Origin: Patescibacteria group bacterium
GTDB lineage: Bacteria > Patescibacteriota > Microgenomatia > UBA1400 > PJMF01
Direction: 5' to 3'
NCBI GenBank assembly: GCA_049322655.1
Contig: JBMORP010000002.1
Coordinates: 238,915-272,012, forward strand
DNA length: 33,098 nucleotides
Part shown: positions 2,760 through 33,098 of the stretch, piece after piece
Layout: each line of letters starts with the position of its first letter
How positions within the stretch are numbered: position 1 is the first letter of the stretch
Notes under the pieces: model-generated
Databases searched by the model: none
What the model was told of the DNA's origin: nothing
The model's input: the letters and a program-made list of their open reading frames with translations, nothing else
Made by a program: the position numbers and the translations under genes

Positions 2760-4715
2760 TTAGCCGGCTCCCCCACCGCCACCGCCACCGCCACCACCGC
2801 CACCTCCAGATGATCCGCCACTAGAACCAGTGCCACTGGCTCCAAAACTTTTAGTTGAAGAGGTTGTAAATGAGCCCAAAGCAGTATCCAAAGCACTAGA
2901 AAAACTAGCAAAAGAGGAAGAAAAACCATGAGTATGACTATGACCAACCCAAACAGCAGTAATTGTGGGATCATTGAGATCAAAACTAACTGGCAGCTGA
3001 GAAAGAGCTTTGGCAGAAACACCTAGCAAAGTACCGTAAACAAGATATTTTTCCCAAAGAATAACTGAATCAATTGGATACTCCTTTGTTTTGCGATAAT
3101 CCTTCATGTGTTTGGCAAAGGCCCGCCATAATGAAGCTTCTTTCAAGCCTTGGGCTGTATAGTTGAATTTAGTGGCAAAAATCCCCCAGAAAACTGTTAA
3201 AAATAACATTGGTTGAGCTAAACCAAACATAAAAATAAAAAGAGCAGCTGGAGTAAAGTACTCTCCGAGCCAAACCACTTGAAAAATTAGAACAGCTAAC
3301 GCAAGAACAAAAATCAGCACAATAGGTAAAATTTTCTTGAAAAAACTTGGCCCTTTTTTAGTATCAATCAGTCCCTGTTTTTTATTATTAGTAAAAGCCT
3401 TAGTTTCTAAAGCTTTAATTAGGTGATAACCACTTCTGGGATGGTTTTTACTATACTTAATTAAGTCCTTAAACCACAAAATATCATGTCCTTGGGCTGC
3501 TCGCTCGAATAAATAGTTAAAAACTAGTTTTTGCAACTCACTTGGTTGTTTATTGTTTTTAAGTTTTTGAAAACCATATTCATATTTTTTGAACAACAAA
3601 CCCTGCTTATCATCACTGCGAATAATCTTGGCAAATTTATCTTGAACTAAAGATAAGGCCGTAGCGATAAAGGCTTTGGTTGATAGACTCTTGCTGTGTT
3701 TGACTATTTGCTCAACTGAAGCTGGCTCTAAATTACTAGGTGGTTCCCAAAACCGATCAGCCTGGTTTGCTTTGTGAACTCTTTGTCTATCATTAAAAAA
3801 CCAGTTAAAAAATGACCACAAACCAACTATCCAAGCTAAAACTGCCAAACTGCTTTGAATTTTGCTAAAAATCTCATTTCTACCCAGCCACAATTTGGTT
3901 TCTTCAATAAATTTGTTTTCTTGTTTGTTGATCTTATCCCTAGAAAAAGTGCCTTTAGCTCCAGCAAAAAAGCTTGTTTTGGGTAGAATAATCCTAGCTT
4001 CGGTCATCTTTCCGGGGTTAACTCTTGGTACGGTAATTTGCACTGTTTTTTCATCTACAATTGTAATTGTGCCACTGAGTTCACCATGCAACCAAGCCTG
4101 AATTTCGTCACCTTTAATTCCAGCTGGTAAAGTCAGATTAACCAAAACATTTTTTTGAGCAACTTCCCATTCGTTACCAATAAATTGCCAATAAAGTTCA
4201 GCTACATCATCATGTAAAGTCACGGCATTATCGACTAAATAGTTAACTGTAAAAACTTTGGTCTTATCAATTGCTGAGTAGTGCCATTGCAAATAGACTT
4301 CTTTTTCGTCTTGAAAAGTAGTAAAAGTCCCAGCAGGGTTACTCCTTCGATCTTCGAAGTTAATTTTATCGGGATCAATAAATCGATAACAATTTTGTTC
4401 ATCACAAATACTTTTAATTCTGACTTGATAAGGCTCTGTTCTGCCTGGGTTAGTTGTTTGCTGGGGTTGTTTGTTGATTCGCTGATAAGCAAACCGGAAA
4501 TCCCCAGAAAAAACATAGGTACGTTGTTCACTGACCTCCATTGAACCATCTGGGTTAATTTTGGCGTTAATTTGAACAGCTTGAATTTGGTATTCCCTGT
4601 CCTCAGCAGCCTGAGTTTTAGTAGGACAAATTAAAGAAAAAAGAGTAAAAAATAACAACCAAACCATTTGTAAACTAATCATCCTTTTGAAAGTATTCAC
4701 TTTTGTTAATTTCAT
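2760..4715 (-). CDS. DUF2207-family membrane protein
   Basis: N-terminal signal, INPDGSMEVSEQRTY, ELYWQFIG, TM helices, WEKYLVYGTLLGV and a Gly-rich C-terminus. Start is likely ATG 4715 or 4682, because the 4838 start overlaps the L10 leader. Confidence 0.88.
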   Translation of the reverse strand: MKLTKVNTFKRMISLQMVWLLFFTLFSLICPTKTQAAEDREYQIQAVQINAKINPDGSMEVSEQRTYVFSGDFRFAYQRINKQPQQTTNPGRTEPYQVRIKSICDEQNCYRFIDPDKINFEDRRSNPAGTFTTFQDEKEVYLQWHYSAIDKTKVFTVNYLVDNAVTLHDDVAELYWQFIGNEWEVAQKNVLVNLTLPAGIKGDEIQAWLHGELSGTITIVDEKTVQITVPRVNPGKMTEARIILPKTSFFAGAKGTFSRDKINKQENKFIEETKLWLGRNEIFSKIQSSLAVLAWIVGLWSFFNWFFNDRQRVHKANQADRFWEPPSNLEPASVEQIVKHSKSLSTKAFIATALSLVQDKFAKIIRSDDKQGLLFKKYEYGFQKLKNNKQPSELQKLVFNYLFERAAQGHDILWFKDLIKYSKNHPRSGYHLIKALETKAFTNNKKQGLIDTKKGPSFFKKILPIVLIFVLALAVLIFQVVWLGEYFTPAALFIFMFGLAQPMLFLTVFWGIFATKFNYTAQGLKEASLWRAFAKHMKDYRKTKEYPIDSVILWEKYLVYGTLLGVSAKALSQLPVSFDLNDPTITAVWVGHSHTHGFSSSFASFSSALDTALGSFTTSSTKSFGASGTGSSGGSSGGGGGGGGGGGGGAG

Positions 4716-23636: not shown

Positions 23637-26123
23637 TTAAATCTTAGTCACAAAGCTAACTATTTTTCCTGGTACAAAAATTTCTTTGACTACTTTCCCA
23701 GCCAACCATTTTTGGACTTCAGGACTGTCTTTAGCCAACTTAATGACAGTTGCTTTGTCTGTAGCCGACTCAACTTTAACCAGCAACTCAGCTCTAACTT
23801 TACCATTAACCTGAACAGCAAAAGTTACTTCGTTTTCCTTGGCTAATTCTGGATCGTAAACAGGCCAAGCCTGAACATGAACACCATCATACTGACCTTC
23901 AGTTTGAGTTGGAGTCTCCATACACAAAGCATTCAACTCTTCAGCCATAAAAGGAGCAAATGGCGCCAGCATTAAAATAAATTTCCTGACATCTGCTAAA
24001 CAAAGCGCTTGACCTTGTTGATTGGTTGTTTCCCATAAATTGGTCAACTCCATCATCATGGCGATAGCCGTATTGAATTTGAGAGTAGGAATATCTGCGG
24101 TGACCTTTTTTAAGGTTTGATGAAGCTTTCGCTCAACTACTTGATTTGATTTGTCTGGAGGATTATTTTTAGCCATTGTAACCAAACTAAAAACTTTTCT
24201 CAAAAATCTAGCTACCCCAGCCACAGCTCTTGGATCCCAAGGCTTATCAGCCTCTAATGGCCCCATAAACATTTCATACACCCTAAGGGTATCTGCCCCA
24301 AACTCTGTAACAATCTCGTCAGGATTAATAACATTGCCCTTACTTTTACTCATTTTTTTACCATCAGGACCAAGAATCATCCCTTGATGTCTCATTTTGG
24401 CAAATGGTTCGCTAACCTTGAGGTAACCTTCATCTCGAAGAAATTTAGTAAAAAAACGAGAATATAAGAGGTGCAATACAATATGTTCAGGTCCAATTAG
24501 GTAGAGGTCTACCGGTAACCAAGCAGCCAACTTTTCCTGATCAGCAAACTCTTCTTTGTTTCTAGAGTCACAGTAACGTAAAAAATACCAGCTGGAATCG
24601 ACAAAAGTATCCATGGTATCGAACTCAGGTCGCCAACCCTTGCCATACAACCGTTCGGTTCTTTCAATAAATTCTTGAGAAGATTTTAACGGAGATTCTC
24701 CAGTTGGTTTGAAATCAACGTCGGTTGGTAGTTTCCAAGGTAAATGTTCTTCCTTGACTGGGTGAGGCTGCCCCTCTGGGTCATAAACAATAGGAATTGG
24801 AGCTCCCCAATAACGTTGTCGAGAAATTAACCAATCTCTTAGCTTGTAAGTGGTTTGCCATTGAGCAAAACCCTGCTCAATCATCCACTTGGCCATGTTT
24901 TGTTTGCCCTGTCCCCAAGCATCTTGCCCATCAAACTGACCAGAGTTGACCAATAACCCTGGCGCCTCCATAGCTTTTTTGCCATCCCTAACTTGATCAT
25001 TAAGCTCTTTGTCGGCATAAGCCACTACTTGCTTGATTGGGAGGTGGTATTTTTGGGCAAAAGCAAAATCACGGTCATCATGGGCTGGAACACCCATAAC
25101 AATTGCCGTTCCTACCCCCATCAGCACATAATCCGCTATCAACAGAGGAACTTCTTGACCATTAACGGGATTAATTACTGTCAAACCAGTTAATACTCCA
25201 GTTTTATCTTTCTCCCCAATTCGGCGTTCTTCTTCTGTTTTATGTTTAGCCGCTGCTAGATAGCTTAGAACTTCGTCTTTACGATCTTTGGGCACATTTG
25301 CTAACAGACCTTTTGCCTCAAACTCCTCTGGAGCAATCACCACAAAGGTTACGCCAAACACTGTTTCCCAAAACTTGGTCCACACGGTCATTTTTTCAGT
25401 GGTTTCCTTGAGAATAAAATCAATAGCCAAACCTTTAGCTTTACCAATCCAATTTTTTTGTTGTTGTTTAGTTGGCTCTGGCCAATCAACTTGATCTAAA
25501 CCAGCAAGTAACTCATCTTTGTACTCAGTAATCTTGAAATACCATTGTTTCAAATCCTTTTGCTCTACTGCGGCATCACAACGTTCACAAAGCCCATTAA
25601 CCACTTGTTCATTAGCCAGAACTGTTTGACAAGATGGACACCAATTAACCATTCCCATCCCTTGATAAGCTAAACCTTTTTTATATAACTTAAGGAAAAG
25701 CCACTGGGTCCACTTATAATACTCTGGATGATTAGTGGCCGTTTCGTTTTCCCAATCATAAGAAATACCCAATCTTTGAATTTGTCCCCTGAAAGTATCG
25801 ATTGCTTTTCTCGTTGTTTCTGCAGGATGAACCCCTGTTTTAATGGCGTAGTTCTCAGCTGGTAAACCAAAAGCATCCCAACCCACAGGAAAATAGACAT
25901 TTTTGCCATTCATTCTTAGAAATCTGGCCATAATATCTAGCGCTGTCTTCGATTCAACATGGCCAACATGCAAACCTGATCCCGAAGGATAGGCAAAAGC
26001 AAATAATAAGTACTCTTTTTGTTGATCTGACAATGGTTGAGTATCCTGAAACAAACGCAAGGAAGACCACACTTTTAGCCATTTTTCTTCTGTTTGTGTG
26101 TGGTTATAAGCAACTTTTGCCAT
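23637..26123 (-). CDS. leuS: Leucine--tRNA ligase
   Basis: YPSG..LHVGH, GWDAFGLPAEN, GVPAHD, DWLISRQRYWG, KMSKSKGN, VQVNGKVR. Confidence 0.98.
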   Translation of the reverse strand: MAKVAYNHTQTEEKWLKVWSSLRLFQDTQPLSDQQKEYLLFAFAYPSGSGLHVGHVESKTALDIMARFLRMNGKNVYFPVGWDAFGLPAENYAIKTGVHPAETTRKAIDTFRGQIQRLGISYDWENETATNHPEYYKWTQWLFLKLYKKGLAYQGMGMVNWCPSCQTVLANEQVVNGLCERCDAAVEQKDLKQWYFKITEYKDELLAGLDQVDWPEPTKQQQKNWIGKAKGLAIDFILKETTEKMTVWTKFWETVFGVTFVVIAPEEFEAKGLLANVPKDRKDEVLSYLAAAKHKTEEERRIGEKDKTGVLTGLTVINPVNGQEVPLLIADYVLMGVGTAIVMGVPAHDDRDFAFAQKYHLPIKQVVAYADKELNDQVRDGKKAMEAPGLLVNSGQFDGQDAWGQGKQNMAKWMIEQGFAQWQTTYKLRDWLISRQRYWGAPIPIVYDPEGQPHPVKEEHLPWKLPTDVDFKPTGESPLKSSQEFIERTERLYGKGWRPEFDTMDTFVDSSWYFLRYCDSRNKEEFADQEKLAAWLPVDLYLIGPEHIVLHLLYSRFFTKFLRDEGYLKVSEPFAKMRHQGMILGPDGKKMSKSKGNVINPDEIVTEFGADTLRVYEMFMGPLEADKPWDPRAVAGVARFLRKVFSLVTMAKNNPPDKSNQVVERKLHQTLKKVTADIPTLKFNTAIAMMMELTNLWETTNQQGQALCLADVRKFILMLAPFAPFMAEELNALCMETPTQTEGQYDGVHVQAWPVYDPELAKENEVTFAVQVNGKVRAELLVKVESATDKATVIKLAKDSPEVQKWLAGKVVKEIFVPGKIVSFVTKI

Positions 26124-26644: not shown

Positions 26645-27391
26645 CTACCCCATAGAACTAAGAGCTTGCAAACTAAAGACCAGATCTAGGCCAGAAGGAA
26701 CATGAGGATAATATTCATGAAGAATGCCAAAGTCATTTTTTAATGAACCATACAAACGATCAAAGACTGAAGATATCTCTATTTTGGATTGATTAGAAGC
26801 TATTTTTATACTAGTTTCTTTTTCTAGCAAAGATGCTATTTCATTGCTAATGCTCGAGTAAGAATTAGCTAAATCGCTAAGCTGCAAAATTGAACCTATA
26901 ATCTCTTTATCATCGCCAAAAGTCCAGTTTTTAAAAGGAGCAACCATAACACTCCCCTCGTAAGAATTTCTCAACTCATAAGAGACCTTTTCAGATAATG
27001 GGCCAGGAAATAAAAACACTCCTCTGGTTAAAGCCAAGGAATGCTCGGTCAATAGGATTCTTCTTAAAAACCTAAAATTATGATCATGCTTAGGAGCCTG
27101 AAGGAAGATAACTGCCCACCATTCCCCATGCCACTGCCTTCTTTGAGGTGAAAAAGCCGGAATTGCCTGTTCCAAAGACCGCTTGCCATGAGAAGTAATA
27201 CTAATAGCCTGGGTAGAGTTAATCCTCTCCAAGATAATTTTTTTTCTCTGCTGTAAATAGAATAAAGAAGACTGCAAACCAGCCTCAGTGATGGTTGGTA
27301 AAAATAAGCTGAGTTCTTGAACATCAACCCATCTAGATAAATTGTCTTTGGGATAGAGCCAAGTAAGAATTCTGGTAGAGTTGTCTTTCAT
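26645..27391 (-). CDS. PaaX-like transcriptional regulator (N-terminal wHTH plus central domain)
   Basis: wHTH ending ITSHG, then WHGEWWAVIF...LRRIL...LTRGVFLFP, typical of PaaX-like proteins. Confidence 0.7.
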   Translation of the reverse strand: MKDNSTRILTWLYPKDNLSRWVDVQELSLFLPTITEAGLQSSLFYLQQRKKIILERINSTQAISITSHGKRSLEQAIPAFSPQRRQWHGEWWAVIFLQAPKHDHNFRFLRRILLTEHSLALTRGVFLFPGPLSEKVSYELRNSYEGSVMVAPFKNWTFGDDKEIIGSILQLSDLANSYSSISNEIASLLEKETSIKIASNQSKIEISSVFDRLYGSLKNDFGILHEYYPHVPSGLDLVFSLQALSSMG

Positions 27392-27952
27392 TGTTCGTGT
27401 TTTTTATGTATAAATCTTTTATTGCATTTTTTACTCAGATATTAAGCCATCTTTTATACCTCATCATAAAAAGTTTTCCACAATTATTTTTTCCGAAGTC
27501 ACTTCTCACTTGTTTTAACTAATAAACTAAATAAAAATCAATATCTTTAACTAGTAACTTAAATTGATTTATAAAGCCTTTTTTAATTTTTTACTCCCCA
27601 GTAATTTACTCAATAAAGCACGAACATTTAGTTTTCTGTTCACATAATACACTCTTTCTAAGAGTATTAACAGTCAAAAAAACTGTGAAAAACTCATTCA
27701 AACCTTGTCAATGACCCCGATGTTGAAATAGAAACTGATTGTATTTGATGTTATTTGAGTAATATCTATCCTCTTTACAAATACTCTACTTGAGTAAAAA
27801 GTTATTTTTTTTGTGCAAAACGTCACTCAACCCAACCTCAAAAATTGAAGCAAAATGCCATTGCATCTACCCCCTAAAATTTCTTAAACTTATCTCTGCA
27901 ATTGCATCTAACAGAGCTCGTAAAAAAGCCTGGATTACACAATAAAACAATC

Positions 27953-30900
27953 GTGAGAACACAGCCTGCAACAAACCAGCCTCTCAGTCCCACAAAAAAC
28001 GGTTTTTCCACAACTTCGTTGAACTCTATTGCGGGTTCTTTTACTTCCAGAATTCAACAATCTCAAGACTCTCTCGAGTCATACTTAAAAGAACTGCAAC
28101 AACAAGGCAATGCTGAAGCTACACTGAGAAACTATCGGAGTGATATCTCTCAATTTCTTGAGTTTTGCAAAGTTCATCAGCTCGACCCAGCCGCAGGCAG
28201 TGATGCTGTTGAAAAGTTTGAAGATTTTCAGAGAAAAAAACATTTAAAAGATGCTTCGATTAGAAGAAAATCTGTGAGTGTTAATTCTTTTTTAAGCTGG
28301 CTGACAAAAACACAAACAATTGATCAAGACCATTCTTCTCAAGTTTCCAAAAAAACCGAAAATAAAACAAATCAAACTCAAGAAGCTAGTTACATCATTC
28401 CAATTGCCATTGAAAAAATCCTCAACCAATACCTGACCACTCTCAAGTACAACACTATTTCTGACACTACCATCAGAAATTACCGCAGTGACATCAAGCA
28501 ACTAGCTGTTTTTACCAAAGCCCAGACGATTGTTGGCTTACTAGCTTTAGACCAACTCAAAAGATTCGCTGCCGACCAAAAACAAAAAGGCTTAAAGCCT
28601 ACTTCAATCCAGAGAAAACTAGTCAGTATTACCCAATTTGCCCTCTGGGCTCAAAGAAGAAAGCTTGTTTCTGGAGTAACTACTGAGTGGTCAGCTCAAG
28701 TCATGGATACTATCTTTGATAAAAGTGATGGCCCAATCGTAGTAACTCCTCCCACAGAAGACAAAAGCCTTGCTATTGATGTGAGAAAAAGGAGACGCAG
28801 AGAATCTCTACTAGCAGGCCTGGTGTTATTATTGCTTTTATTCGGTAGTACGATTGGCTTGTTCTTGGTTAAATCAGTTCAAGACATTAGACAAAGAGCT
28901 TATGTTGACCCCAAGCAAAACCAACAAATCACTCAAACTACAACCACAACCACCACCACAACTGGCTCTACCGATAAAAGAACCCTACCTTTCAGAGGAA
29001 AACTTTATAGCAGCGAAACTGGACAACAAATTACTGGTACCACTGGAGCTTCATTCAAGCTTTATAACAACGCTGCTGGATCTGGAGAAGCAATCTGGGA
29101 ATCTGGTGTGTGTGAGGTCTCGACTAATGATCAAGGTATCTTCGATATTCTTTTGGGTGGCAAAGAAGAAGCAGAAAATGGCTGTGGCCCTTACTTGTCA
29201 GATGACATCTATTTCGGTAACTCAAATCTTTGGCTATCAACCATCATTAACAGCGAACAGCTAGCTCTCTACCCAATTAAAACTGTTGAGTACGCAAAAG
29301 ATTCAGCCTTACTTGCTGGCTATCCAATTGGAGATCCAGTGATCAAAGAATCTATTCTTTTCATGAATGAATATGGAGAAGTGTTATTTGCTGATGAACC
29401 AACCTTCAATGTTCCAGAAGGAGATTTAACTCTATCTGGAAACAACCTTTATTTTGTAACAGAAGGCTTGGGAGGAGCATTCTTTGATAGTTTGATAGTA
29501 GCTCCTTATGGCTATTTTGGTGGAGCTGATAACCCAGCCTTAGTCCTACAGTCAACAGAAAATGCTACTAAACCTTTAATGGTTTGGGCCGACTCAACCG
29601 GCACTACGATGGGAGTAATTGATGCTAATGGTAATATTGGCTTGGGAACAGAAACCCCACAAGGACTTCTCGGCTTAGGAAACAATGGAGCCTATTTATC
29701 AGCATATGGAGACGATTTGCTTTTTTATGATGAAGCTAACGGTACTCTCTTAAGTTTGAGCCAATTAGCCAAAGACGAAGTCGGAGTAAACTATTGGGAT
29801 AAAACCAATAGTGATATTAGTTACAGCACTGGTAATGTTAGCGTTGGCACTTCAGTTTCAGAGCAAGCTTTAACTGTTAGTGGTAATTTACAATTGGGTG
29901 TAGCTGATGCTGATCGCTATATCTACTTCGACAACGGCACTGGAGATAATGCTGGCATCCGTTATAACAGCACTGACAATACGATTCAGTTTTCTCACGA
30001 TGGATCAACTTGGTCCAAGATTGGAGCTGGTCAAGTTACTTCAATTACCAGTACTGATAGCTCCATTACTTTAAATCCTACAACTGGAATTGGTGATGTT
30101 GATTTAGCACTTAACTTAGGCACTGCTCACAACTGGACAGGTCAACAAAACTTCGCCTCTAATGTGGGTATTGGTACTACTGCTCCTTCCTACAAATTAG
30201 ATGTTCAAGGCACAGCTGGAGATATTGTCGCTAGATTTAATGGTCGAGTTATTGGCGCCGATGCCGTTAATAGTGATGAGTTTGTCACCTTGGGGCAAGT
30301 AACTGGCTTAACTCTCCCAACAGGATCTGGCGGTGAAACTCTTTACTATGATGGTTCTGCCTGGGTCGCTACCACCAACCTTTATAATGATGGCACCAAC
30401 ATCGGTATTGGCACCAATGTTACTGATGCAGCTTTAACTTTAGCTGCTGACACCCTAGCTAGTGGTGGAATCAGCTTTGGTGGTGATACAAATATTTACC
30501 GATCTGCTGCTAATACTCTCAAAACTGATGATGCCTTCGTGTTAGGTTCAGTTGGAACTGGTACCACTAACTCCGTGATTACCAGAGAAACTGATGGCAC
30601 CCTCACTGCCAGAACTATCGACTCCAGAGTCTGGGGATCTTCTTTAATGAGTGGTTCTGGAACCACTGGTTATGTCACTTACTGGGATACAGACAATTCT
30701 ATTGCTGCTGAACAATACCTGAGTGTTACTAGAGGTGGTCTGGGTAGCAATGTGACCGCTCTTGGAGCCGGAGAAATTCTTTACTCCACTGGTACCTCAG
30801 CTTATGACTCCTTAGCTGCAGGTTCTGCTAACCAACTCCTAATCTCTGGTGGTGCCGCTGCCCCTTCCTGGTCTAATGTTGCATCCCTCCTCACCGCTGG

Positions 30901-33098
30901 TGATGATATTGATATCACTGGTACCACCAATGCTACAATCACCCTAGAAGATGATATTGATCTAACTGCTCTTCGTGCCTCTTCAGCTTCTGGTCTCTCC
31001 TTATATGATGATGGTGGTGTTCTTGGTTTGTTTCTCCAAGATGCTACTGGTAATGTCGGGATTGGTACCACCTCACCAGAGCAACAACTCACCACCACTG
31101 GTAACTTACAACTAGGTACTTCTAACGCAACTAGATATATTTACTTTGATAATGGCACAGCTAGCAACTCTGGTTTCCGTTATAACAGTGCCACAGGTAG
31201 ACTGGAGTTTTCTGATAATGGTAGTGTCTGGAATAATTTTGGTACTGGTGACGGAACAGTCACCTCAGTCACCAATGCTGATGGCACTATTACTGTCTTC
31301 CCCACTGATGGCGATGTCGTTGCTTCTATAAACCTGGCCAATGCCAACAATTGGACTGCTCAACAAACCTTCGGGGCTAATGTCGGTATTGGAGTAACTA
31401 GCACTACAGCTGCTCTTGATTTTGCTGCTGGTACCACTGCTGCAGCAGGAATTGAGTTTGGTGGGGATACCACTCTATACCGAGCTGCCGCCGACACTTT
31501 AAAAACCGATGACAACTTTATTCTTGGTACAGCTGGAGTTGGCACCACTAACTCGGTCATCACTAGAGAAACTGATGGTACCCTTACTGCCAGAGATATT
31601 GATGCTAGAGTTTGGGGATCAACTTTACTCGATGGCTCTGGTACCACTGGTTACGTAACTTATTGGTCTGACAGTGATACTTTGGCTGCTGAACAATATT
31701 TGTCTACTCTTAGAGGTGGCCTAGGTGGAGATGTAACTGCTCTAGGAGCTGGTGAACTTCTCTATTCTACCGGCACCTCAACCTATGACTCTTTGGCCGC
31801 TGGTTCAGCTAACCAACTTTTAATTTCTGGAGGGACTGCTTCTCCATCATGGTCTGATATTTCTTCTCTCCTCACTGCTGGTGATGATATCGATATTACT
31901 GGAAGCACTAACGCTACTATCACTCTAGAAGATGACATTGATCTGACCGTCCTTCGTGCCTCTTCAGTGGCTGGACTAGCTCTTTATGATGATGGTGGTA
32001 ACCTGGGTCTTTTTGTCGCTGATCAAGGTAATGTCGGTGTCGGTACCAACACTCCAGATACAACTTTCCATGTTGATGTGGGAGCTACCAACAGAAACAT
32101 TAAATTTTCTGCTAACTCTGGTTTTAGCACTGGTTTAGACATCTTCAGTGGCACCCAATACTCACAACTCATTCAAGAAACCACTGGTGAACTCTCGATT
32201 AAAAATAGAAACTTAAACGAAAACATTCAATTTATTGTTAATGATGGCGGAATTTTAACTACAGCTCTGACTGTTGAAGGAGCAAGTGGGAATGTAGGCA
32301 TTGGCACTAGTTCTCCTGGAGCAAAACTTGGTTTTGTTGCTGATACAACCGCTGCTGGTGGCATTGATTTTGGTGGTGATACAAATATTTACCGTTCGGC
32401 TGCTAATACTTTAGTAACTGATGATGACTTTAATGTCTTGGGTGGTAATTTGGGCATTGGAGCCTCAGGTGAAATCTACCTTTCAGCAGTTGATACGCTC
32501 AGAACCGATGATACTTTTGTTTTAGGCAGCATCGCTCTTGGCACCACTGACTCAGTCATTACCAGAGAATTAGATGGCTCACTAACAGCGAGAACTGCTG
32601 ACTCCAGAATCTGGGGATCTTCCTTAATTGATGGCTCTGGTACAACCAACTATCTATCCAAATTTACTGATGATGACACTTTGGCAAATTCAGTAGTTTA
32701 TGATGATGGAACTAATGTTGGCATTGGTACCACCTCACCAGAACAACAACTAACAGTTAATGGCAACTTACAACTGGGAGTAGCTGATGCTGACAAATAC
32801 ATTTATTTCGATAATGGAACGGCCACTAATGCTGGTATTCGCTATAACAGTACAACTAATATTTTGGAATTCTCCAACGATGGTACTAGTTGGAATCAAT
32901 TTGGTAGTGGCAGTGGCTCTGTTACTTCCGTCACTAACGCTGATGGTACTCTTACTATCTCACCAACTACTGGAGATGTAGTTGCTTCTCTCAATCTAGC
33001 TAACGCTAACACCTGGACTGGTGCTCAAACCTTTAATGCTAATACTTACTTCCCTGGTAGCACTATCATCGATACTGCTGGTAATGTCGGTATTGGTA
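27953..33098 (+). CDS. Giant membrane-anchored fibre-like protein with two N-terminal integrase SAM-like (core-binding) domains; partial, >1,700 aa
   Basis: Not in ORF track (no stop in window). Frame open from 27878 to the end; start GTG 27953 (or TTG 27902). TLRNYRSDI / TIRNYRSDI domains, TM at 28808-28870, about 11 GNVGIGT-type motifs. Confidence 0.88.
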   Translation, partial: MRTQPATNQPLSPTKNGFSTTSLNSIAGSFTSRIQQSQDSLESYLKELQQQGNAEATLRNYRSDISQFLEFCKVHQLDPAAGSDAVEKFEDFQRKKHLKDASIRRKSVSVNSFLSWLTKTQTIDQDHSSQVSKKTENKTNQTQEASYIIPIAIEKILNQYLTTLKYNTISDTTIRNYRSDIKQLAVFTKAQTIVGLLALDQLKRFAADQKQKGLKPTSIQRKLVSITQFALWAQRRKLVSGVTTEWSAQVMDTIFDKSDGPIVVTPPTEDKSLAIDVRKRRRRESLLAGLVLLLLLFGSTIGLFLVKSVQDIRQRAYVDPKQNQQITQTTTTTTTTTGSTDKRTLPFRGKLYSSETGQQITGTTGASFKLYNNAAGSGEAIWESGVCEVSTNDQGIFDILLGGKEEAENGCGPYLSDDIYFGNSNLWLSTIINSEQLALYPIKTVEYAKDSALLAGYPIGDPVIKESILFMNEYGEVLFADEPTFNVPEGDLTLSGNNLYFVTEGLGGAFFDSLIVAPYGYFGGADNPALVLQSTENATKPLMVWADSTGTTMGVIDANGNIGLGTETPQGLLGLGNNGAYLSAYGDDLLFYDEANGTLLSLSQLAKDEVGVNYWDKTNSDISYSTGNVSVGTSVSEQALTVSGNLQLGVADADRYIYFDNGTGDNAGIRYNSTDNTIQFSHDGSTWSKIGAGQVTSITSTDSSITLNPTTGIGDVDLALNLGTAHNWTGQQNFASNVGIGTTAPSYKLDVQGTAGDIVARFNGRVIGADAVNSDEFVTLGQVTGLTLPTGSGGETLYYDGSAWVATTNLYNDGTNIGIGTNVTDAALTLAADTLASGGISFGGDTNIYRSAANTLKTDDAFVLGSVGTGTTNSVITRETDGTLTARTIDSRVWGSSLMSGSGTTGYVTYWDTDNSIAAEQYLSVTRGGLGSNVTALGAGEILYSTGTSAYDSLAAGSANQLLISGGAAAPSWSNVASLLTAGDDIDITGTTNATITLEDDIDLTALRASSASGLSLYDDGGVLGLFLQDATGNVGIGTTSPEQQLTTTGNLQLGTSNATRYIYFDNGTASNSGFRYNSATGRLEFSDNGSVWNNFGTGDGTVTSVTNADGTITVFPTDGDVVASINLANANNWTAQQTFGANVGIGVTSTTAALDFAAGTTAAAGIEFGGDTTLYRAAADTLKTDDNFILGTAGVGTTNSVITRETDGTLTARDIDARVWGSTLLDGSGTTGYVTYWSDSDTLAAEQYLSTLRGGLGGDVTALGAGELLYSTGTSTYDSLAAGSANQLLISGGTASPSWSDISSLLTAGDDIDITGSTNATITLEDDIDLTVLRASSVAGLALYDDGGNLGLFVADQGNVGVGTNTPDTTFHVDVGATNRNIKFSANSGFSTGLDIFSGTQYSQLIQETTGELSIKNRNLNENIQFIVNDGGILTTALTVEGASGNVGIGTSSPGAKLGFVADTTAAGGIDFGGDTNIYRSAANTLVTDDDFNVLGGNLGIGASGEIYLSAVDTLRTDDTFVLGSIALGTTDSVITRELDGSLTARTADSRIWGSSLIDGSGTTNYLSKFTDDDTLANSVVYDDGTNVGIGTTSPEQQLTVNGNLQLGVADADKYIYFDNGTATNAGIRYNSTTNILEFSNDGTSWNQFGSGSGSVTSVTNADGTLTISPTTGDVVASLNLANANTWTGAQTFNANTYFPGSTIIDTAGNVGIG
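29831..33098 (+). repeat. Degenerate modular coding repeats within the giant gene
   Basis: Module A (GNLQLG..YIYFDNG..G.RYNS..W) starts at ~29831, ~31049 and ~32714. Module B (FGGDT..YR.AA.TL.TDD..VITRE.DG..R.WGS) starts at ~30431, ~31412 and ~32324 (partial). Confidence 0.85.

Follow-up and report, generated by a model that had tools for sequence, protein, structure and literature searches.

Regulators of the ToxR/CadC/TcpP type carry an N-terminal cytoplasmic DNA-binding domain, one transmembrane (TM) helix and a C-terminal extracytoplasmic domain. Cultivated Patescibacteria, the candidate phyla radiation (CPR), live attached to host cells and have few regulators, and how they recognize their hosts is largely unexplained. 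Here, we describe a giant gene at the end of a 33,098-nt stretch of a patescibacterial genome (hereafter the window; GenBank contig JBMORP010000002.1, positions 238,915 to 272,012). The family to which it belongs joins a recognition fibre, similar to the mosaic adhesive trimeric (MAT) fibres of Bdellovibrio, to a cytoplasmic DNA-binding-type head in one polypeptide, and has a dedicated PaaX-like partner. The head consists of domains known from the N-terminus of site-specific recombinases. Judging from their sequences, we see about an even chance that these core-binding domains have been exapted to bind DNA without catalysis, which would make the product a membrane-tethered DNA-binding protein.

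The giant protein would resemble the ToxR/CadC/TcpP-type regulators in layout only, a predicted layout which its charge bias fits. The head of those regulators is a winged helix of the OmpR type and their periplasmic sensor is small, whereas the giant protein has a core-binding head and a fibre of more than 4,000 aa. Its head shares the four-helix signature of the core-binding domain (PF02899, PF13495) of XerC, XerD, XerA and phage integrases. According to the account in PMC3646895, this N-terminal four-helix domain is the DNA-binding domain of the recombinases and forms the DNA-binding half of their clamp; the Xer review PMC5357621 offered no account of it. In contrast to the recombinases, the giant protein has the domain duplicated in tandem and tethered to the membrane, with invariant residues of its own and no catalytic domain, and the closest relatives of the head are giant surface proteins. 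The SPbeta master repressor MrpR (YopR), as presented in PMC10516654, is a tyrosine-recombinase-type protein that acts as a DNA-binding regulator and not as a recombinase. It is a soluble phage repressor, unlike the membrane-anchored giant protein, and the two are likened here by description and not by domain content.

On the other side of the membrane, and only there, the giant protein resembles MAT fibres. PMC10769870 describes MAT proteins as mosaic adhesive trimeric fibres of S74 and non-S74 subfamilies which the predator uses on its prey, in prey recognition, and whose invariant extracellular N-terminal domain is thought to bind the predator's own surface. The GNVGIGT-type repeats of the giant protein match solved segments of these Bdellovibrio bacteriovorus fibres, of which Bd2133 and Bd3182 are examples, and its S74 domain is like that of the S74 subfamily; both kinds of protein occur in bacteria that, following the same source, need to recognize another cell. 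Unlike MAT fibres, the giant protein has a TM anchor and, in the cytoplasm, a head of DNA-binding type. It is also 4-5 times longer, and another ~550 aa follow its S74 domain. MYRF, as described in PMC3742443 and PMC8326128, combines a DNA-binding domain, a single span and an S74-type trimerizing chaperone in one polypeptide, and both MYRF and the giant protein are type-II. In the giant protein, S74 lies across the membrane, ~550 aa from the C-terminus, and the DNA-binding folds of the two proteins are unrelated. From that position, near the C-terminus and across the membrane from the head, S74 cannot release the head of the giant protein. A MYRF-like self-cleaving factor was considered and rejected, S74 lying beyond both TM helix and fibre and on the wrong side of the membrane.

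The initial annotation of the window, made from the sequence alone, knew of no characterized protein with this architecture, and our literature search, which did not cover supplements, likewise found no account of a SAM-like or helix-turn-helix (HTH) head on giant surface proteins. The sequences themselves are already public as hypothetical proteins or 'integrases', and it is the architecture that is undescribed in the literature found. The part of the gene inside the window contains the following features.

27953..33097, + strand: giant gene, 5' part (1715 codons); the frame is open at the contig end and resumes on the reverse strand at the end of contig C6
28073..28315, + strand: core-binding (SAM-like) domain 1, aa 58-138 of the window protein P0001, net charge +1
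28421..28663, + strand: core-binding (SAM-like) domain 2, aa 174-254 of P0001, net charge +11, pI 10.5
28784..28801, + strand: basic stretch RKRRRR just ahead of the membrane helix, read from the sequence
28808..28870, + strand: predicted single TM helix of 21 aa, signal-anchor, N-in (Kyte-Doolittle)
28931..28963, + strand: poly-Thr linker TQTTTTTTTTT, read from the sequence
28985..33097, + strand: acidic fibre, predicted to be extracellular; a membrane-proximal module (LPFRGKLYS...), then long divergent repeats with NVGIG motifs

The initial annotation had proposed comparing the N-terminus with the Phage_int_SAM families, and in a Pfam search of aa 1-323 SAM_1, SAM_4 and SAM_5 all matched. 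Phage_int_SAM_1 (PF02899) was found in two stretches with E 1.6e-16 and 60.8 bits against a cut-off of 22.3, SAM_4 in two stretches with E 1.1e-10, and SAM_5 with E 1.9e-5. The domain borders were set by a purpose-built hidden Markov model (HMM) of the core-binding domain, which reproduces the two tandem domains first placed at 28073-28303 and 28421-28651 and ends each of them slightly later. Their assignment to the XerC/XerD/phage integrase core-binding type also holds, with the PF02899 score above cut-off and with alignments of the family profile to PDB entries for XerD (1a0p, 6e-7), an integrase N-terminal domain (3nrw, 6e-7) and XerA (5hxy, 4e-5; 4a8e, 9e-4). The head keeps the signature T..Y..D ... 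R..S...F that it shares with recombinases, and adds the family-specific residues N-Y, R-K, Q-F and W, which are conserved at ≥80% in 93 domains. Net charge is positive in 95% of 88 domains, with a median of +6. Neither PF00589 (Phage_integrase) nor any other Pfam family was matched at cut-off in aa 324-1732, and PF00589 was also absent from the continuation of the protein on contig C6. A TM helix thus takes the place of the catalytic R-H-R-H/W-Y domain, as had been noted at the outset, and since that domain is missing the protein is not a recombinase. In the protein atlas, all leads for the homologue P0006 stayed below 0.8.

The top PDB match of the SAM profile was a Porphyromonas (P.) gingivalis protein, 9i5v_14, which is structurally uninformative because just 34 residues of its 400 aa are modelled. 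As an aside, this chain (401 aa, ribosome-bound, labelled RaiA) aligns over its first ~280 residues like a Xer-type recombinase, including the core-binding domain and a 'LLGHDSLSTTVQYTHI' stretch, and from its sequence it may be a fusion of a recombinase-like protein with a hibernation factor.

To see how widely the head occurs, we used aa 1-323 as a phmmer query against the full library and obtained 128 matches at E<=1e-3, 40 of them at E<=1e-10. The matching proteins fall into 71 of at least 1,000 aa (maximum 7,697), 15 of 450-999 aa and 42 of less than 450 aa. Among the 57 below 1,000 aa, 52 were scanned with Pfam (the scan omitted P0010, P0012, P0047, P0051 and P0078, in which the match is followed by a TM helix); SAM_1 was present in all 52 and PF00589 in just 8. 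The giants, i.e., proteins of at least 1,000 aa, that contain the domain according to the HMM number 73, a set which takes in the window protein and extra matches from the protein search. One copy was found in 53 and two copies in 20 of these, and three copies can be made out by eye in some, for example P0016 and P0017. The close relatives P0003-P0006 (51-72% identity; Candidatus Pacebacteria) show the same order of two SAM domains, basic stretch and TM helix, with a poly-Thr stalk in P0003-P0005. Their source labels are 'site-specific integrase, partial' or hypothetical, so the warning given with the initial annotation that such proteins are easily mistaken for integrases was justified. With labels of this kind, integrases and mobile elements would be overcounted in CPR genomes. 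The true gene is usually split across contig ends.

A survey of CPR genomes for the combination of SAM domains, TM helix and fibre had also been suggested, and it shows the architecture to be recurrent in Patescibacteria. Among 201 genomes of the class to which the window belongs, 21 contain a match to the head at E<=1e-6. For 13 of them, the genomes with SAM-headed giants, the open frame around the match spans at least 635 aa; of the 5 other genomes in the window's family, 4 are included. These genome sets are samples, and related genomes within them are not independent. In the single-contig genome G140, the SAM region (a 191-aa frame, L084:12529-13101, - strand) is broken from a giant frame of 2,555 aa (L084:4503-12167, - strand). 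The break falls within the second SAM domain and may represent a frameshift, a sequencing error or a split gene.

The basic stretch, the 21-aa helix and the poly-Thr linker follow one another in the order given by the initial annotation, with the helix at the same positions. The helix is the sole Kyte-Doolittle hydrophobic segment in the 1732 aa of the window frame, and the window protein has no N-terminal signal sequence or hydrophobic segment. About 285 N-terminal residues precede the membrane. This predicted cytoplasmic part (aa 18-304) has a net charge of +14 and a pI of 9.8, and the ectodomain, as far as it lies in the window, a net charge of -102 and a pI of 4.05; the corresponding family means per 100 aa are +4.6 and -4.8. 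A TM helix follows the last SAM domain within 350 aa in 70 of the 73 giants (median linker 84 aa), and 65 of the 73 have exactly one hydrophobic helix in the whole protein. K and R are more frequent in the 20 aa ahead of the helix than in the 20 aa behind it in 62 of 70 giants, equally frequent in 5 and less frequent in 3. The lack of a signal sequence, the charge split, the K/R bias and the position of the fibre domains on the C-terminal side make N-in/C-out the consistent reading. The cytoplasmic N-terminus that had been deduced from the positive-inside rule is therefore kept, as a prediction from charges.

The window ends together with contig C2 of its genome (G000; 929,306 bases, 6 contigs, 96% complete), and the frame of the giant gene (27902-33097, + strand; 1732 open codons) leaves it there. 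Alignment of six upstream regions places the start at GTG 27953, where L032 and L033 have ATG, and the part of the gene within the window thus encodes 1715 aa. Extension beyond the contig to find the C-terminus had been recommended, and the continuation was traced to the end of contig C6. Read on the reverse strand, the 3' end of C6 begins with the same repeat and has no stop for 873 codons, a count that spans a 100-N gap. Past the gap, another frame of 1,934 codons counted through the gap (1,897 real) runs to a stop. The gap (G000:C6:649787-649886; L003:9406-9505) lies inside the gene, in the first of two ~800-aa lectin-like modules, and because the frame differs on its two sides, length and frame at the gap are not fixed.

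All matches to the fibre repeats across the genome fall within the two frames at the ends of C2 and C6. Moreover, aa 37-734 of the C2 part align to aa 12-678 of a complete 4356-aa open reading frame (ORF) in G125, and the last ~490 aa of the C6 part align to the C-termini of the G125 protein (3873-4355) and the G181 protein (2803-3292 of 3294), so that these complete relatives (4356 and 3294 aa) are collinear with C2 followed by C6. Beyond the C6 part lie three pilin-like genes, a gene for a ~690-aa multi-TM protein and Obg, in synteny with the region downstream of the G155 gene. Since the repeat matches are confined to both contig ends, the complete relatives are collinear and the synteny with G155 holds, we read the two contig-end parts as a single gene with a minimum of 1715 + 831 + 1897 = 4,443 codons, to which losses at junction and gap have to be added. 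The identical reading frame through SAM domains, TM helix and fibre is present in many independent assemblies. This argues that the fusion is not an assembly artefact, and a stop or frameshift between SAM region and fibre, which had been named as a finding that would speak against the fusion, is not a general feature.

After the TM helix, the C2 part of the protein continues for 1,409 acidic residues (aa 324-1732), in agreement with the more than 1,300 aa of fibre first annotated. At the protein level, NVGIG occurs nine times and YIYFDNGT three times, and self-matches are 46-74% identical. This evidence for repeats is based on motif positions and genome-wide repeat matches, as self-BLAST gave no off-diagonal rows. 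TRF reported 0 arrays, which means that the annotated 'fibre repeats' stand as long, divergent protein-level repeats and not as tandem repeats of the DNA. In the C6 part, Pfam detects Laminin_G_3 (4e-20) and Peptidase_S74 (PF13884; 2e-14, 53.8 bits against a cut-off of 22), the latter also present in the complete relative P0009. The ectodomain as a whole holds concanavalin-like lectin modules, the S74 intramolecular-chaperone domain and a conserved C-terminal region, and ~550 aa follow S74 to the C-terminus. The family profile A1 matches the Bdellovibrio MAT fibres 8ond_A (bd2133; E 1.5e-5) and 8ol4_A (E 7e-4) in the PDB. By sequence, then, the fibre is related to Bdellovibrio MAT and phage tail fibres. 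In analogy with fibres that contain S74 it is probably trimeric, and by similar analogy it probably recognizes or adheres to the host cell. When the membrane-proximal module of the ectodomain was used as a query for fibres with other heads, it returned 4 matches, all of them close relatives that bear SAM domains.

The giant gene is transcribed divergently from a conserved partner gene.

26645..27391, - strand: putative regulator of 248 aa, PaaX-like, transcribed divergently from the giant gene; recognized across related loci with an HMM of this protein

With this HMM, 36 of 39 loci from the species-genome collection show a PaaX-like ORF that directly precedes the SAM match in divergent orientation. 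The other three are L039 and L054, in which less than 620 nt of upstream sequence is present, and L065 with a weak match. The complete circular record of G181 starts with the giant gene and ends with the PaaX-like gene, so that the two adjoin. The HMM matched in 13 genomes, once in each. PaaX_M (PF20803, the Cas2-like central domain of PaaX) is detected at E<=0.01 in 14 of 28 members and exceeds the cut-off in one (L025, 25.8 against 24 bits); the copy in the window has no Pfam match. Against the PDB the protein gives weak matches to 3kfw (0.07) and PaaX 8a39 (0.29), plus winged-helix proteins.

In G031, the PaaX-like gene is paired divergently with a giant ORF (1,704 aa or more) that has no SAM domain and begins with a MerR-like N-terminus followed by a TM helix. 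Six of the eight weak PDB matches of this head, including the top five, are MerR-family regulators. The MerR-like family includes nine matches of ~700 aa, two of which are named 'DNA-binding transcriptional MerR regulator' by one source, and outside the membrane its profile matches the MAT fibres 8ond (3e-7), 8ol4 and 8ojn. A MerR-like head was found in 27 of the 201 genomes, with ORFs of up to 6,605 aa (L085:2-5113, - strand; loci L090-L114), and it is tandemly duplicated in G001, G162 and G046. A TM helix comes after the HTH in 18 of the 21 ORFs with enough sequence. None of the 27 genomes is among the 13 with SAM-headed giants, so that 40 of the 201 genomes have giants with DNA-binding-type heads (core-binding in 13, MerR-like HTH in 27). 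The parallel is one of analogy and not of homology, because the FQGRLT module and the PaaX-like partner are not shared. By this analogy, the HTH-headed giants are an independent assembly of the same design, and the occurrence of two DNA-binding-type folds in the same position is the main indirect argument for DNA binding as the selected function. We also noticed that the ectodomain of the G031 giant (L085:2-4363, - strand) contains an Intein_splicing (Hint) domain (Pfam E 5.4e-21), which may be a self-processing site of this surface protein.

Between the PaaX-like gene and the giant gene lies a conserved region with sites that resemble DnaA boxes, for which the consensus is TTWTNCACA.

27392..27952, no strand: divergent intergenic control region (~560 nt), alignment A4 of 6 sequences
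27474..27482, + strand: DnaA-box-like 9-mer TTTTCCACA, inside AGTTTTCCACAA, from consensus match and conservation
27630..27652, + strand: most conserved non-coding block AGTTTTCTGTTCACATAATACAC, nearly invariant in A4
27684..27692, - strand: DnaA-box-like site, TGTGAAAAA on the + strand, fits TTWTNCACA
27812..27820, - strand: DnaA-box-like site, TGTGCAAAA on the + strand, fits TTWTNCACA
28004..28012, + strand: DnaA-box-like 9-mer TTTTCCACA within the coding sequence, where it encodes F-S-T, from codon-level conservation

Alignment A4 contains many invariant columns in long blocks, though the proteins of these loci are only ~50% identical. TTCACATAATAC, within the 27630-27652 block, is unique in the genome, and GTTCACATAATACAC recurs with at most 2 mismatches in 16 of 37 intergenic regions. 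In the distant genome G031, where the PaaX-like gene is kept and the SAM head replaced, no conserved block is recognizable except for one match with 1 mismatch to the 8-mer ATCTAACA. Rfam gave no hit at threshold in the conserved leader (the best was CyaR with 23 bits against a cut-off of 47), and a scan of 27300-28000 for sigma-70 promoters and terminators found 0. Among the conserved 9-mers, TTTTCCACA is the most frequent and was found in 23 of 37 intergenic regions. Its 12-mer context AGTTTTCCACAA occurs in 4 copies in the genome, compared to 0.2 expected, and two of these flank putative dnaA and dnaN. About 1.5 kb from a further AGTTTTCCACAA site, at C2:155409, and outside the window lies a 316-aa Xer-like ORF (G000:C2:152987-153937, - strand) that was not listed by the first search of G000 itself.

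The control region is the densest TTWTNCACA cluster of the genome, with 4 sites in 600 nt against a mean of 0.062. Over 36 loci, the density of this motif is 2.30 per kb in the intergenic regions and 0.13 per kb in the flanks; 29 of the 36 intergenic regions have at least one site and 15 have at least two. In total, 50 sites were observed, compared to a mean of 2.7 for permuted motifs. At the N-terminus of the giant proteins, FST is spelled exactly TTT-TCC-ACA in 16 of 21 occurrences (39 loci), plus the window's own, where codon usage would predict ~1.2%. Control motifs vary at synonymous sites, NYRSD having 20 spellings in 33 occurrences and RKL 24 in 31. Since the spelling of FST is fixed while that of the control motifs varies, sequence conservation indicates that the 9-mer itself is under selection at the DNA level. 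Candidate binders are DnaA, which is the simplest reading, the PaaX-like protein and the SAM domains.

Because the record of G181 begins in this intergenic region and the region holds a DnaA-box cluster, a location of the module at oriC was considered and rejected. In G000, the cumulative GC skew, computed on C2 joined to the reverse complement of C6 with a junction gap of no fixed size, has its minimum at ~325-335 kb, at dnaA (332.5-334 kb), and the module is at 266 kb. In G181, for which 320 kb around the record start were used, the cumulative skew is lowest at ~60 kb, with dnaA at 61.6 kb, the densest DnaA-box windows are found there, and the module has at most one DnaA-box-like site. The distance between dnaA and the module is 60-66 kb by the skew minima of G000 and G181, and 37-63 kb where both are on the same contig (G181, G125 and G155). 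If the origin lies at dnaA, as GC skew indicates, the giant gene is oriented head-on to the replication fork in G000 and G181.

The inference that the head binds DNA draws on the core-binding signature, the basic charge and the MerR-like HTH found in the same position. In such a protein, the fibre would be outside and the N-terminus inside; the fibre, which would be matured by S74 as homology with MAT and tail fibres suggests, would recognize or adhere to the host; the core-binding domains would bind DNA in a ToxR-like manner and without recombination; and the state of the fibre would be coupled to transcription or to the position of nearby DNA. Three roles had been offered in the initial annotation. 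A contact-sensing, membrane-tethered regulator fits best, tethering of the chromosome is possible with its oriC version having failed, and for anchoring DNA for transfer nothing seen in the analysis provides support. If the head binds DNA, the gene would specify a minimal device for contact-to-chromosome signalling or tethering and a new use of the recombinase core-binding domain. A broader idea, which we regard as unlikely, is that giant fibres are direct transmembrane links from the host-contact apparatus to the chromosome and represent a convergent general design. When a trimeric fibre of more than 4,000 aa was touched or pulled, the single helix of each chain would relay this to clustered core-binding domains. 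Such domains would occupy specific DNA near their own gene, for example the 27630-27652 block or the DnaA-box-like 9-mers, ~60 kb from oriC, and the cell, with no need of a two-component system, could switch transcription or keep the origin-proximal part of its chromosome where it is attached to the host. If true, giants with DNA-binding heads would be a general, convergently evolved design of ultra-small bacteria. The cytoplasmic region is small (~285 aa) and expressible, and candidate DNA targets are defined (27630-27652 and TTTTCCACA-type sites).

Several observations weigh against DNA binding by the head. SAM domain 1 of the window protein is near neutral (+1), and in recombinases the core-binding domain by itself, with the catalytic domain removed, is a weak DNA binder. 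The conserved blocks of the control region may be sites for DnaA or for the PaaX-like protein; the latter could be the true ligand of the SAM domains or merely the regulator of the gene. The HTH parallel is modest: Pfam MerR matches the G031 head with E 0.003-0.008, below the cut-offs; the family profile of the head reaches GlnR 7tec at 0.003, MerR 3gpv at 0.004 and 4ua1 at 0.056; and the FQGRLT module was found in 0 of 21 and a PaaX-like neighbour in 1 of 25 HTH-headed giants. The PaaX-like gene adjoins the giant gene divergently in 36 of 39 loci, and likewise in G181, with a single match in each of 13 genomes; its near absence upstream of HTH-headed giants ties the pairing to the SAM module. 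This would suit SAM-like domains that serve as a protein-docking module, capturing or releasing the PaaX-like regulator or a Xer recombinase at the membrane, so that the fibre would control a soluble transcription factor by anti-sigma-like sequestration, and the invariant family-specific surface residues are equally suited to a protein partner. A divergent regulator gene, however, most simply regulates its neighbour, G194 has a PaaX-like gene without a giant gene beside it, and the basic charge of the domains and the HTH swap in the PaaX-paired position of G031 fit nucleic-acid binding better. We consider docking an unlikely alternative.

The cytoplasmic domains could also act as a folded stopper, anchor or biogenesis aid for the long fibre and have no ligand-specific role, the recombinase domain having been recruited just for being stable, basic and N-in. 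The N-terminal TM helix is the sole hydrophobic segment in the C2 part and no other anchor was seen there, copy number (1-3) and linker length (38-258 aa) vary, and lineages differ in which of two unrelated small domains they have at this position. A mere stopper would not need near-invariant surface residues (T..NY.SD..QF, RK..S...F..W) next to fully diverged ectodomains, however, and recruitment of two folds which are both DNA-binding types is not what is expected of a random stable domain, so we rate this explanation as distinctly improbable. It is very improbable that the SAM-TM region is a cleavable leader from which signal peptidase, cutting at ...LA|(Y/F)P, frees a mature fibre. The motif [SAGT]xA[FY]P does follow the TM helix within 45 aa in 32 of 70 giants and precedes a very conserved module, but at -3 it often has P, Q, N or K, the subfamily of the window lacks it and has the poly-Thr stalk instead, and no other anchor for the fibre was seen. 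To our knowledge, a folded pre-sequence of 300 aa is not a known form of signal peptide. A recombinase remnant joined to a surface gene by mis-assembly or frameshift might be suspected from the location of the gene at a contig end in a repeat-rich region and from the break between SAM region and giant frame in G140. The continuous frame in many assemblies, including the complete ORFs of 4356 and 3294 aa and the set of 73 giants, and the strong purifying selection on the domain sequence reduce the probability of such an artefact or decayed gene to almost nil.

Some further observations concern the start of the gene and its surroundings. The string ATGCCTGCCAA is common to 10 of 37 regions and its 10-mer ATGCCTGCCA to 12 of 37, which suggests, at the sequence level, a constraint on the translation-initiation region. 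Many distant members (start codons in L028-L066) begin with MPAK or MPAN. The three pilin-like genes downstream are type IV pilin-like, and the same neighbourhood (L003; L027 = G000:C6:632382-652381) is devoted to surface structures and contains, downstream of the giant gene, a second large Laminin_G_3-rich ORF. In G181, a second giant LamG-rich gene of more than 1,869 aa directly follows the first (L024:10394-16000) and has its own TM helix but no SAM domain. On the other side of the module, the PaaX-like gene of the window adjoins a putative leucyl-tRNA synthetase-like ORF of 828 aa (23637-26123, - strand; identified by eye), and the same order is found in G011 (L026).

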